Source: a virus | Taxonomy: Duplodnaviria; Heunggongvirae; Uroviricota; Caudoviricetes | Strand: one strand, 5' to 3' | Virus record (IMG/VR): IMGVR_UViG_2778261375_000003 | Length of the DNA: 64,000 nt | Part shown: positions 2,165 to 54,563 of the stretch, piece after piece | Layout: each line of letters starts with the position of its first letter | Numbering within the stretch: position 1 is the first letter of the stretch | Notes under the pieces: model-generated | The model's database searches: none | Seen by the model: only the letters and a program-made list of their open reading frames with translations | Told to the model about the DNA's origin: nothing | Program-made: the position numbers and the translations under genes

Positions 2165-2353
2165 TCACGAGGACAGAAGTTTCTCGCAATTAAAATTTAT
2201 CAGCTTTACTTTCTGCTCTCTGGACACGCCTGCTTCTTTTTTCCCTGAGAGCATTTTTTCGCATTCTGATTTCGTTAATTTAGATTTTGAATATCTTGTC
2301 CAGTTAGTAGGAGTGCCACCTTCTTTTTCAATAGTGGCAGTTATTTTATACAT
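2165..2353 (-). CDS. Hypothetical small protein (YdaC position in Rac)
   Basis: ORF between xis and lar; start chosen at internal Met to limit overlap with lar; start uncertain. Confidence 0.4.
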   Translation of the reverse strand: MYKITATIEKEGGTPTNWTRYSKSKLTKSECEKMLSGKKEAGVSREQKVKLINFNCEKLLSS

Positions 2354-6894: not shown

Positions 6895-7289
6895 AATTAT
6901 CTCCATTTTTACAAATGAATTTTGTCGATGCGGTGCCTGGTGCCTCCAGGTGACGTTAACCAGTTAACAATTAACGCCGGATAATCCACCCATAACACTG
7001 ATGCTTTTAACTGTTCCGCGTGCGCTTAGCCGCATTCACCGCATCACAAAATTCACTTTAAAAAGGGGCGGCAGGGCAGCCACGGAGTAGAACTGATGCC
7101 GCCAAAGACTAGACACAGCAATGTCGTTATTTACAACCGGAGGCGCACTCCCACCATTTAAATTTAACAGACAAGACCGACTCTTTATGAATACCGGAAA
7201 TGCGCCTTCGTGTTGTGCGCCTGTCTTTTTACCACTTCAGGCTCGGTGGTATACTGGAGTTCTCACACAACCAGTAATAAGGTATTCCG

Positions 7290-7915: not shown

Positions 7916-8377
7916 CTACTGGTTACGTTTCTTTAGTGCCAGCATGTTCTCGAAGGCTTCCTCGTAGAGCTTGTTTAGTCCACGTAGCTGGTTAAGGAGT
8001 TTGGCTTTTTCTGACGCAGGTAGAATCTCGAAGAGGTTAAGTAACTCAGCCTGTTCTTCATTGACCAGCCTCCATCCTTTGCCTGAAAAGCTATCATCAT
8101 AAGTATCTGATGATCTTACATAATTCATTAAGTCTTTAAGGTCTTCTCGAATGTCCTCTGGTTTTACCTTTAACAGAGCCGCAAATTTTAGCGCAGCGTC
8201 GGTATTTACCGGTATCTTGCCGTTCAGATACTGGCTAACGGTGCCTTGAGATTCGAATCCCAACAACTCAGCCGCCAGCTCTTGAGTCAGCTTCAGCTCT
8301 TTTTTTCTTGCATTCCATGCGGCTTTTAAATTCTTGCTCGCTTCTGGAGTTGCAATCACTTCGCGTGTTTTTTTCAT
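7916..8377 (-). CDS. racR: RacR-like HTH repressor
   Basis: 153 aa with XRE-type HTH (LTQELAAELLGFESQGTVSQYLNGK); divergent from a Cro-like gene; position equals RacR in Rac. Confidence 0.7.
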   Translation of the reverse strand: MKKTREVIATPEASKNLKAAWNARKKELKLTQELAAELLGFESQGTVSQYLNGKIPVNTDAALKFAALLKVKPEDIREDLKDLMNYVRSSDTYDDSFSGKGWRLVNEEQAELLNLFEILPASEKAKLLNQLRGLNKLYEEAFENMLALKKRNQ

Positions 8378-8478: not shown

Positions 8479-8760
8479 TTGGCTATGAACTTAAGAGACT
8501 ATTTAAAAGAGAAACATATCACCCAGTTACAGTTTGGGAAGCTAACGGGTTTATCTCAGGTGCATGTAAGTCGAGTGCTGGGGGGCTATGAAAGATTCAG
8601 CCCTGAAAAAGCATTACGTGTTGCTGAAGTAACGAATTTCGAGGTTACACCTCATGAACTCCGGCCTGATATCTACCCGAATCCGACCGATGGTTTACCT
8701 GTTGGATGTAAGGCTAACACACAAAATGCACAGGAGTTGATTCATGAAAATCAGGCATGA
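8479..8760 (+). CDS. ydaS: YdaS-like Cro-type HTH protein
   Basis: 93 aa, HTH (LTGLSQVHVSRVL), divergent from repressor. Confidence 0.7.
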   Translation: MAMNLRDYLKEKHITQLQFGKLTGLSQVHVSRVLGGYERFSPEKALRVAEVTNFEVTPHELRPDIYPNPTDGLPVGCKANTQNAQELIHENQA

Positions 8761-9166
8761 GCACATCGAATCAGTGTTGTTAGCCCTAGCCGCTGAAAAA
8801 GGGCAGGCGTGGGTCGCTAACGCAATTACTGAAGAATATCTGCGCCAGGGGGGCGGCGAATTGCCCCTGGTACCAGGCAAGGACTGGAATAATCAGCAGA
8901 ACATCTATCACCGTTGGTTAAAAGGTGAAACGGAAGCGCAAAGGGAAAAAATTCAGAAACTGATCCCTGCAATTCTGGCAATCCTTCCGCGCGGGCTGCG
9001 TCACCGACTCTGCATCTTCGATACCCTGGAACGCCGTGCATTACTGGCGGCGCAGGAAGCGTTGAGTACGGCAATTGATGCGCATGATGATGCAGTCCAG
9101 GCCGTTTACCGGAAAGCACATTTCAGCGGTGGTGGGTCGCCCGGCGATTCTGTCGTAGTGCATTGA
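8744..9166 (+). CDS. ydaT: YdaT-like protein
   Basis: 140 aa, overlaps ydaS 3' end; length and position match Rac YdaT. Confidence 0.7.
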   Translation: MKIRHEHIESVLLALAAEKGQAWVANAITEEYLRQGGGELPLVPGKDWNNQQNIYHRWLKGETEAQREKIQKLIPAILAILPRGLRHRLCIFDTLERRALLAAQEALSTAIDAHDDAVQAVYRKAHFSGGGSPGDSVVVH

Positions 9167-13865: not shown

Positions 13866-13931
13866 ATTACCGAGTAAGGCGATGGACTACCTGAAGCGAA
13901 ACGGGCTGACAAGCGTGGAGGATATTTTACG

Positions 13932-14015
13932 ATGACCTGGCCTGAGGCATTCACCACGGTAGGAATTGCAATGGCGGTGGCGCTGGTGGTGTATTCGATT
14001 TGCCGCTGGGGATAA
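13932..14015 (+). CDS. Possible 27-aa hydrophobic peptide
   Basis: Hand-found ORF MTWPEAFTTVGIAMAVALVVYSICRWG; below ORF-track cutoff; speculative. Confidence 0.25.
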   Translation: MTWPEAFTTVGIAMAVALVVYSICRWG

Positions 14016-14203
14016 AAACGGTTTGCGGGAAAAGGAGAGTTAAGTAGAATTGCAGCGGGTGCTTGAGGCTATCTGCCTCGGGCATGAACACCAACGGCAG
14101 ATAGATAAAAGCCCCACCCGACTATAAATCGAAGTGAGGCCCCTATATGCTCGTCACATATAGATTGCCTCTTACGGACCGAAAGGTCAAGGAGAAGCAG
14201 GCT

Positions 14204-14359
14204 ATGAAGCAGCAAAAGGCGATGTTAGTCGCCCTGATCGTCATCTGTTTAACCGTCATAGTGACGGCACTGGTAACGAGGAAAGACCTCTGCGAGGTAC
14301 GAATCCGAACCGGCCAGACGGAGGTCGCTGTCTTCGTAGACTACGAACCTGAGGAGTAA
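14204..14359 (+). CDS. hok: Hok/Gef-family type I toxin
   Basis: 51 aa MKQQKAMLVALIVICLTVIVTALVTRKDLCEVRIRTGQTEVAVFVDYEPEE, near-identical to recalled HokD/RelF; in-frame upstream ATG at 14147 could act as a mok-like leader. Confidence 0.9.
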   Translation: MKQQKAMLVALIVICLTVIVTALVTRKDLCEVRIRTGQTEVAVFVDYEPEE

Positions 14360-14427
14360 GAGACCCGGCGGGGGAGAAATCCCTCGCCACCTCTGATGTG
14401 TCAGGCATCCTCAACGCACCCGCACTT

Positions 14428-14450
14428 ACCCCGCTTCGGCGGGTTTTTTG
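14428..14450 (+). terminator. Rho-independent terminator of hok transcript
   Basis: ccccgcttcggcggg hairpin followed by tttttt. Confidence 0.7.
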
Positions 14451-14637
14451 TTGTTTATTTTCGGTGAGCATGATGCATCTGGTTGTACTGATGTGGCTGG
14501 CTGATTCTGTTATTCAGGTGGCTTATTGCTGTTGATTGGTATGTCTTCACGGCTAGAATCGAGGCTCTTAAGTAGCGCGCAGGGAGAAGAGGGATGGACC
14601 CCGAAGGGGAAGAGCTATTTATCTGGAAGGATTCTGA

Positions 14638-14813
14638 AGATGAAAATCGAAGAATTGCGTGAAATTTTTAGTGAAAATGGCCTCTATGCTGTGCGCGTTG
14701 AGAATGGGAAAGTTGTCTACACAACGTTAATCCCTGATGATCATGTAATTTTATCTATCGAGGCATTCATTGAATACCTTGAAAGGCTCGGTTTCAAGGT
14801 GGTTCGCGAATGA
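14638..14813 (+). CDS. Hypothetical small protein
   Basis: 58-aa ORF from MKIEELREIF; start chosen at internal ATG. Confidence 0.4.
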
Positions 14814-16313: not shown

Positions 16314-16339
16314 CTCAATCTGTTATCCGGGGCTATATT
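16310..16339 (+). promoter_or_regulatory. Candidate late promoter pR'
   Basis: TTGACT (16310-16315), 18-bp spacer, TATATT (16334-16339), overlapping the Q stop codon. Confidence 0.4.
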
Positions 16340-16400
16340 CCTCACGCGCCAGCAAAATCTGGCGTCGGGATTGGCGTCCTGGATAGAGACCGCGACAGAT

Positions 16401-16422
16401 ACACGCCGCGAGCGTGTTTTTT
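16401..16422 (+). terminator. Candidate tR' terminator of a short pR' leader RNA
   Basis: acacgccgcgagcgtgt hairpin plus tttttt, about 75 nt downstream of the predicted pR' start. Confidence 0.5.
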
Positions 16423-16583
16423 ATTGTCGTATGCACGCGCACATCTGAATTATGGTGGGCTGTGTGGGGGCGGAGAGATCCGCGCCGGTCGGTTTCCCGG
16501 TTACGCCAACCCTGCACAGTTCACCACCAGATGATTGGCGTCGTCGGTGGTGAGTTATTAAGAAACCACCAGAGGGCGTCATT

Positions 16584-53951: not shown

Positions 53952-54563
53952 CCCAGAAAAACAAAAACCGGCGAGAAGTTACCACGAGAACGGAAAGTAA
54001 ACAAGAATACTCCCATTGACTTATATCAATTAATCAACTTTTTATAAGCTATCCCTAACTTATTGTGTATAGCTGAAAAGTCAGAGACAAGTTCACCATC
54101 TGCATTATTTCTTAAGTTAATAGTTTATTGCTAACTTAATTTATGTATCGACTATTGATATCCATCTTAAAGTTACAATATCCCTCTGCATTATTTTTCA
54201 TCACAAATAATATATCTATTGCACTACACTCACCTGCTCTAATAAATTTGTATTTTTAAGTCACAAATGCTATCTTTTCGCATCATATTGACCTTTTAAT
54301 CGTTCAGGCTTATAGTTCCGCCGTCGTAGCAAATTCTGCGACCGGGTTTAGCAGCCTGAATGATTGTGCGGACAGCCGCAGATATCCGATATTGCGGTAT
54401 TTTTGTGTCCGTAAAACCGTGTTACGCCCAAATTATGGTGGGGCGTGATGGGGAGGCTTCGGCCTGCTGGTTTCACAATCGCCAGTCTGCTAACCCCGTC
54501 ACGTCCTGCCACCTGTTTAGCAGCGGGTAGCAGGTTGTTAAACCTGATTGTGAGGCCGTAACT

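Follow-up and report, generated by a model that had tools for sequence, protein, structure and literature searches.

[quoted passage not shown] The evidence comprises the elements of the cassette, their predicted folds, their conservation and covariation, and their homology to annotated or tested loci. The cassette is of a known and ordinary kind; its identity and intactness are supported, and the ‘addiction’ role proposed for it is not.

The toxin gene (14204–14359, + strand; ATG at 14204, stop codon at 14357–14359) appears in the list of open reading frames and is recognized by both Pfam and PHROG. Translation of 14204–14359 yields a 51-aa peptide, MKQQKAMLVALIVICLTVIVTALVTRKDLCEVRIRTGQTEVAVFVDYEPEE, that matches Pfam HOK_GEF (PF01848) over the full model (positions 1–42 of 42), with an E-value of 2.6e-23 and a score of 81.8 bits vs. 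a cut-off of 22, and that matches PHROG 251 (‘MokW-like host killing’) with an E-value of 1.1e-32. The peptide is 94% identical (48/51 residues) to K-12 HokD and likewise to 933W HokW, 80% identical to HokC, 35% identical to HokB, and 45% identical to R1-type plasmid Hok, and residues C15, T17, R26, E31, R35, G37, and E40 are invariant in an alignment with HokB, HokC, HokD, and HokW. RefSeq lists the identical protein under accession WP_201795642.1, with the name ‘type I toxin-antitoxin system toxin HokD’. In NCBIfam, the model for the Hok subfamily gives a score of 49.8, below its cut-off of 73, and that model thus does not settle the name HokD. A Shine-Dalgarno sequence, AGGAG, is present at 14190–14194 (+ strand), and homology to K-12 hokD starts exactly at this point. 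We conclude from these matches that the peptide is a member of the small Hok/Gef membrane-peptide family, in agreement with an earlier, sequence-only reading of the locus that had described a 51-aa, HokD/RelF-like type I toxin. Judged by the 48/51 peptide identity, the DNA identity, the flanks, and the RefSeq name, the locus is the orthologue of hokD (relF).

The codon for Tyr47 and the nucleotide that follows it form a TACG motif (14342–14345, + strand), a putative site in this allele for TadA-dependent A-to-I editing that would change Tyr to Cys. The motif lies in a 9-nt loop having the same fold as in K-12 hokD, in which TadA edits the matching Tyr47 site to Cys.

The toxin gene is predicted to be expressed from a full-length, 393-nt mok-hok mRNA (14057–14449, + strand), with a 5′ end assigned from position 1 of Rfam model RF01794, 7 nt after the −10 element, and a 3′ end assigned from the terminator. 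The candidate promoter (14022–14050, + strand) comprises a −35 element, TTTGCG (14022–14027), having 3/6 consensus matches, a 17-nt spacer, and a −10 element, TAGAAT (14045–14050). The sequence TAnnAT occurs at positions −12 to −7 relative to the GGGTGC 5′ end in 99 of 101 distinct homologous loci, and the position of the −10 element is kept even in loci with unrelated sequence further upstream. A generic scan for σ70 promoters and terminators that required at least 4/6 matches per hexamer and permitted no bulges detected no hok promoter, no Sok promoter, and no Sok terminator. The hok promoter was missed because its −35 element has only 3/6 matches, and we take the misses as a limit of the scan rules, since ~100 loci keep these elements at fixed positions. 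The mRNA would end at an intrinsic terminator, CCCGC-TTCG-GCGGG followed by six T residues (14430–14449, + strand; stem at 14430–14443, T-run to 14449), which the terminator scan detected and which the sequence-only reading had placed to within 1–2 nt. A similarity of the hok 3′ UTR to isrK was rejected as sub-threshold (26.6 bits vs. 50), the resemblance consisting only of a hairpin plus a terminator.

Rfam model RF01794 (‘sok’) matches 14057–14206 on the + strand over its full length (positions 1–157), ending at the hok AUG, with a score of 103.9 bits vs. a gathering threshold of 59 and an E-value of 1.7e-22, values that exclude chance as the source of the leader match. The same model scores 110–118 with hokC, hokW, and hokB and 87.2 with the R1-type plasmid locus. 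At K-12 hokC and hokB, at 933W hokW, and at the R1-type plasmid locus, the match again is to the hok-sense strand, and, because the match always falls on this strand, the model describes the hok mRNA leader, with the Sok gene opposite. Within the leader, a mok-type ORF of 70 codons (14147–14359, + strand), present in the list of open reading frames, is preceded by a Shine-Dalgarno sequence, GAGG (14136–14139, + strand), 7 nt before its ATG, and is in frame with hok. Its start codon, the upstream ATG that had been suggested to open a mok-like frame, aligns with the annotated starts of mokW and mokC, each of which likewise is in frame with its own hok gene. By analogy, translation of hok would be coupled to translation of mok.

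The predicted minimum-free-energy fold of 14057–14449 (−163.3 kcal/mol; z = −6.2) contains the canonical structures of hok mRNAs. In this fold, nt 1–12 of the mRNA pair with nt 353–365, that is, the tac element at the 5′ end, GGGUGCUUGAGG (14057–14068, + strand), pairs with the fold-back-inhibition (fbi) element, CCUCAACGCACCC (14409–14421, + strand). The ucb element, with the anti-Shine-Dalgarno sequence GCCCC (14111–14115, + strand), pairs with the mok Shine-Dalgarno region (14136–14140). A Sok-target hairpin (14143–14163, + strand), consisting of a 7-bp stem that contains the mok AUG and a loop, CUCGUCA (14150–14156), is predicted in all folds, and the folding model gives an unpaired probability of 0.76–0.99 for the loop. 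Downstream of the toxin gene, a stable 3′-UTR hairpin (14367–14388, + strand) would, by its role in R1 (PMC9841398), be expected to form the protected 3′ end of the mRNA after processing. Upon truncation of the 3′ end in silico to 14400 or 14408, the 5′ end switches to a tac/ucb stem, GGG.GCUU/AAGCCCC, the activating rearrangement described for R1 (PMC9841398). The accompanying gain in accessibility of the mok Shine-Dalgarno sequence in the thermodynamic model is modest (0.14–0.32 unpaired).

An alignment of 93 hok mRNAs, drawn from the 933W record, 45 genome loci, and 80 viral contigs, shows that the predicted pairings are kept. In the alignment, 93.1% of cells are paired, vs. 38–44% with partners slid by 1–3 columns, a percentage that is inflated because the structure was derived from one aligned sequence. 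The counts of compensatory changes are less affected: 44 pairs are changed on both sides, vs. 15–22 in the slid controls. None of 500 shuffles attained the observed pairing values. The tac/fbi helix (helix 1) is 97.9% paired over the 93 loci, with two compensatory pairs (UA to CG and GC to AU); the ucb/mok-Shine-Dalgarno helix (helix 4) is 96.9% paired, with four compensatory pairs; and the helices of the 3′-UTR hairpin (helices 17–19) are 97–100% paired, with compensatory changes.

A Sok-like antisense RNA had been expected on the − strand at around 14100–14200. By aligning the window with annotated sokW (AF125520) and with sokC and sokB (NC_000913), we map a putative Sok RNA of ~55 nt to 14155→14101 (− strand), with ends assigned by homology. 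The 55-nt sequence is predicted to fold (−21.4 kcal/mol; z = −4.7) into a single-stranded 9-nt 5′ tail, a bulged hairpin, and a U-run. The base of the hairpin and the U-run are conserved in 49 distinct Sok-strand sequences, with five compensatory pairs; AU-to-GC compensation is found at two pairs, in 12–13 of the 49 sequences. The hairpin is 21–22 nt shorter than that of the tested sokW, and the shortened RNA still folds as tail, hairpin, and U-run.

A candidate Sok promoter (14162–14190, − strand) comprises a −35 element, TTGACC (14190–14185), a 17-nt spacer, and a −10 element, CAATCT (14167–14162), with +1 at G14155. Counterparts occur at the same place in sokC (TTGACC-17-CACTCT) and sokW (TTGCCT-17-TAACCT). 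The −35 element and spacer are conserved (diversity 0.027), but the −10 element has only 2/6 consensus matches. Mutation of the sokW promoter abolished antitoxin activity (PMC8621323), and a search of the available literature found no published evidence that sokC-type promoters are active. By analogy with sokW, the one promoter for which activity has been seen, the promoter of this allele may be active. The locus thus has both a candidate antisense promoter, with hairpin and U-run, and fold-back elements, the features whose absence had been named as the mark of an unregulated or inactive relic.

Because every element required by the R1 paradigm is present, the mechanism proposed for the module is taken from that paradigm, in which the ends of the transcripts, their processing from the 3′ side, the instability of Sok, and the toxicity of Hok are the parts that we infer. 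According to this mechanism, the weak promoter (−10 element TAGAAT) would yield the 393-nt mRNA 14057–14449 in a closed state, in which the 5′ tac element is paired with the 3′ fbi element and the mok ribosome-binding site, GAGG, is held by ucb. Slow trimming by 3′ exonucleases, to the hairpin at 14367–14388, would remove fbi; the 5′ end then would capture ucb, mok would be translated, and hok would be translated by coupling. The short-lived, ~55-nt Sok RNA would block mok translation by pairing of its 5′ tail with the loop of the mok-AUG hairpin, and the resulting duplex would be destroyed through cleavage by RNase III. When Sok synthesis stops, Hok would be made, would enter the inner membrane, and would depolarize the cell.

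Two loci are especially close relatives of the cassette. With mokW/hokW/sokW of phage 933W and Sakai prophage Sp5 (AF125520), DNA identity is 87% from 13932 to ~14430, and the two loci share the in-frame mok, the same 5′ end, the same fbi, the Sok position, and a 27-codon ORF immediately upstream of the cassette. They differ in length of the mRNA (415 nt in 933W/Sp5 vs. 393 nt in the window), in length of the Sok/ucb hairpin (the 21–22 nt difference noted above), in the target loop (CUGAACA in 933W/Sp5 vs. CUCGUCA in the window) and, with it, the Sok tail, and in the CCCGC/GCGGG terminator, which is present in the window and missing from the 933W copy. Genomic position differs as well: the 933W neighbours are L0139–L0141 upstream and L0136 downstream, whereas the locus in the window lies in the replication-to-Q interval. 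The short-hairpin allele of the window is common to five other loci (L053, L076, L088, L112, and L124).

With K-12 hokD (relF) of the Qin prophage, DNA identity is 96.7% over 14190–14462, an interval that covers the Shine-Dalgarno sequence, coding sequence, 3′ UTR, fbi, and terminator; both loci have a rem or rem-like gene downstream, and both occupy the same nin-like position before a Q-like gene. The K-12 locus, however, has lost everything upstream of 14190, namely tac, ucb, the mok start, and the Sok gene and promoter, and has relBE instead. The K-12 sequence upstream of the point corresponding to 14190 is relE, and RF01794 gives no match at K-12 hokD. K-12 hokD is a leaderless remnant, and the locus in the window thus is the full-length form of that locus.

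More distant relatives share the regulatory logic. The hokC/mokC/sokC (gef) locus has an in-frame mok, a Sok promoter of the form TTGACC-17-CAnTCT, and a short Sok hairpin, but encodes a peptide 80% identical and is a core-chromosome locus beside nhaA, disrupted downstream by IS186 in K-12. Plasmid R1 hok/mok/sok (IncFII type) resembles the locus in Hok/Gef family membership, RF01794 match, tac/fbi logic, and positions of the Sok promoter and mok start; its Hok is only 45% identical, and it is plasmid-borne, with a demonstrated role in post-segregational killing. In R1, mok and hok are read in different frames, unlike the in-frame mok of the window.

The genomic context corresponds to the prophage nin-like region named in the sequence-only reading. 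A gene for a helix-turn-helix repressor lies at 7916–8377 on the − strand and is followed on the + strand by, in order, YdaT-like, DnaC-like, DUF1627, hok, rem-like, DUF1367, and YbcO genes, and then by a DUF1133/Q-like gene, an ORF6N gene, and a DUF2570 lysis gene. The hok gene thus is co-oriented with the early-right operon. Searches with a 601-nt query found, in 1,092 of 5,426 complete E. coli genomes, a place that accounts for 80% or more of the query, where the copies usually carry no annotation beyond ‘hokD’ or ‘Hok/Gef family protein’; matches were also found in 106 phage records, Stx phages included. Homology of the cassette ends on its 3′ side at the terminator and on its 5′ side at ~13927–13932, ~14010, or ~14037–14049, a pattern of boundaries of the sort to be expected of a self-contained ‘moron’.

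The range first assigned to the hok locus, 13870–14450, holds the locus, but its first ~150 nt (13870–14020) hold a separate ORF. This 27-codon hydrophobic ORF (13932–14015, + strand), MTWPEAFTTVGIAMAVALVVYSICRWG, is treated here as a neighbour of hok rather than as a part of the hok system. The ORF is open in 29 related loci, including 933W, and the exact 27-aa peptide occurs on 79 contigs; between the window and 933W there are three synonymous and six non-synonymous codon differences, a ratio that gives no clear sign of purifying selection. Searches of Pfam, PHROG, NCBIfam, and PADLOC assigned the peptide to no family. An apparent link to DUF551 (121 aa) through a 90% cluster was rejected as a chaining artefact of partial records, since DUF551 proteins lack the peptide.

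No stretch of the locus varies more than the loop at 14150–14156 (0.99 bits vs. a mean of 0.165), which spans mok codons 2–4 and to which the 5′ tail of Sok is complementary. The nucleotide diversity of the loop is 0.386, vs. 0.027 at hok third codon positions, that is, 14 times that at synonymous sites. Sixteen loop variants are found among 69 prophage-type loci, and one genome with four co-resident loci has four different Sok tails. It is conceivable, if somewhat doubtful, that the loop and the Sok 5′ tail constitute a fast-evolving specificity determinant and that the window carries a distinct specificity class, defined by loop CUCGUCA and the 22-nt shorter Sok hairpin. If so, co-resident prophage hok/sok copies would diversify to stay orthogonal, and the Sok of one prophage could or could not neutralize the Hok of a rival. 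Relaxed constraint on this loop, in which the two strands are always complementary, would account for the diversity equally well. A search of the available literature on hok/sok cross-talk found no discussion of the matter.

The role of the cassette is best approached through hokW-sokW of Sp5, the one prophage relative whose function has been examined directly (Takada et al., 2021; PMC8621323). In that system, HokW acts as a toxin that sokW, expressed from its own promoter, neutralizes; deletion of hokW-sokW leaves normal growth unaffected (PMC8621323). Upon treatment with mitomycin C, sokW RNA vanishes in a RecA-dependent manner, HokW, which localizes to the inner membrane, appears ~1 h before endolysin, and wild-type lysogens halt growth ~40 min earlier than the deletion mutant and release ~2 times as much phage (PMC8621323). 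By analogy, the reading we favour, tentatively, is that Sok is lost at induction of the prophage and that Hok then aids lysis and phage release. Transcription that runs on from the early-right operon, which has the same orientation, could shut down the antisense Sok promoter, and occlusion of the promoter in this manner would explain the loss of Sok upon induction. The hokW locus occupies a different position in its phage, and its induction-linked behaviour therefore may not transfer to the window.

A second reading, which we consider unlikely, is the one advanced in the sequence-only reading: that the cassette is an addiction module that stabilizes the prophage, such that, when the prophage is lost through excision without replication or through deletion, the decay of unstable Sok leaves the long-lived hok mRNA free for translation and kills the cured cell. 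R1 hok/sok has addiction as its classical role, the regulatory parts of that system recur in the window, and hok genes are ~four-fold enriched in prophages. The 933W record also labels hokW ‘prophage maintenance’, but that label is an annotation by analogy. The measured phenotype of hokW-sokW is at induction, deletion having had no effect on growth of the lysogen (PMC8621323). Furthermore, post-segregational killing is not known for any chromosomal or prophage hok locus, and chromosomal hokA, hokB, and hokC with all elements failed to give either killing after rifampicin or post-segregational killing (Pedersen & Gerdes, 1999, as cited in bioRxiv 10.1101/2025.08.07.668861). The proposal of a stabilizing addiction module accordingly finds no support in the loci that have been assayed.

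The reported inactivity of chromosomal hok loci in killing assays raises a third reading, to which we assign a slightly lower likelihood: that the cassette is a silent or decaying relic, carried with the prophage and never activated, like K-12 hokA–E. The Sok and hok promoters look weak relative to consensus, and part of the Sok hairpin present in sokW is deleted from this allele, which would fit decay; the shortened Sok, however, keeps its predicted fold. The locus, moreover, contains no IS element, frameshift, or stop codon, and all defined elements are intact, with pairings kept by compensatory change. Diversity is 0.014 at codon positions 1 and 2 vs. 0.027 at position 3, the cassette is present in the 1,092 E. 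coli genomes described above, and the sister locus hokW-sokW is functional (PMC8621323).

Least probable of the four is abortive infection or phage exclusion, in which a lytic phage would stop transcription, Sok would be shut off, and Hok would kill early and protect the lysogens. The mechanism needs only a transcription stop, and R1 hok/sok cut T4 plating efficiency by 42%, but this effect is modest and comes from high copy number. In addition, no enrichment of hok genes in the neighbourhood of defence systems is reported, and PADLOC models (PADLOC-DB) matched neither Hok nor the 27-aa ORF nor the ORF on either flank. Our order of preference thus is the tentative role in lysis and release, then addiction, then silent passenger, then phage exclusion.

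Cassettes of this type have been on record for lambdoid prophages since the annotation of 933W in 1999; their function was demonstrated in 2021, and thousands were catalogued in 2025–26. The value of the present locus as a discovery is small, and its use lies in annotation and possibly as an experimental system. At such loci, RefSeq marks the ‘hokD’ coding sequence only, leaving the mok frame, the Sok gene, and the mRNA ends unannotated, and the Rfam ‘sok’ match falls on the sense strand. The locus shows K-12 hokD as it was before relBE replaced the leader. Its orientation, the same as that of the early-right operon, makes the cassette convenient for testing whether Sok is silenced by transcriptional interference at prophage induction.

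The loop of the Sok-target hairpin (14150-14156, + strand), which corresponds to the 5' tail of the Sok antisense RNA (14155-14147, − strand), is a hot spot of diversity in the hok locus. Entropy in the loop is 0.99 bits, as compared to an average of 0.165 over the locus. The nucleotide diversity of the loop is 0.386; that of hok third codon positions is 0.027. Sixteen loop variants occur among 69 prophage-type loci, and the stem of the hairpin shows covariation. The Sok tails of four homologous loci co-resident in one genome (L010, L015, L018, and L033; CP178302.1) all differ from each other; unlike these co-resident loci, sokW, of the Stx2 phage 933W, and sokC, of hokC, are identical in their first 9 nt. 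The Rfam model RF01794 ('sok antitoxin') matches the hok-sense strand, with its 3' limit at the hok AUG, both in the window (14057-14206) and in the homologous loci L001, L003, L005, and L134. We conclude that an RF01794 match, being consistently on the hok-sense strand, marks the hok leader and not the orientation of the Sok RNA.

Within hok, the Tyr47 codon TAC is followed by G, yielding a TadA editing motif (14342-14345, + strand) that lies inside CUACGAA, in a predicted 9-nt loop. The local predicted fold is the same around the equivalent motif of K-12 hokD, for which TadA editing of Tyr to Cys at the Tyr47-equivalent position has been reported.

Upstream of the cassette, a putatively coding hydrophobic ORF of 27 codons (13932-14015, + strand; MTWPEAFTTVGIAMAVALVVYSICRWG) overlaps the end of a short preceding frame through an ATGA start and stops 7 nt ahead of the hok −35 element. 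The ORF is kept open in 29 related loci, including that of 933W, with 13 peptide variants and two different values for its distance to hok; window and 933W differ by 3 synonymous and 6 non-synonymous codon changes. The identical peptide is recorded from 79 contigs, labeled 'bacteriophage protein' or hypothetical, and has no match in Pfam, PHROG, NCBIfam, or PADLOC. Downstream is a rem-like gene (14526-14813, + strand; PF27490 in a precomputed table) that shares 87% identity with a portion of K-12 rem (L004), so that hok and rem follow each other just as they do in the Qin prophage. Positions 14532-14559 contain a promoter-like sequence, TTGATT-16-TAGAAT.

A plasmid search with window positions 14020-14460 as query detected the cassette, at 80-82% identity, on hundreds of E. 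coli and Salmonella plasmids. These plasmids are non-mobilizable, are about 89-98 kb in size, carry the annotation 'hokD', and may be phage-plasmids; in the phage search, one Punavirus record also matched. The exact 70-aa product of the Mok frame is on record in a single contig, NOEJ01000003.1 (GCA_002517405.1), in which gene order is identical to that in the window; the window probably derives from this contig.

The window contains further sRNA genes and a toxin-like ORF. An SdsR/RyeB and SraC/RyeA sRNA pair (463-607) is probably host flank. DicF is at 7066-7117 (− strand), a c4-a1b1, isrK, and C4 set lies directly 3' of a Q-like gene (16333-16531, + strand), and a second c4-a1b1 and C4 set is at 54310-54516 (+ strand). 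An ORF with a match to Pfam YdaT_toxin (8744-9166, + strand; E = 3.5e-10) adjoins an HTH repressor gene (7916-8377, − strand), an arrangement shared with Rac-type immunity regions. A full-length RalA sRNA is present at 2169-2347 (+ strand; 219 bits). In the type I system ralR/RalA, this sRNA serves as antitoxin; the same prophage region would then carry a candidate second type I toxin-antitoxin locus.
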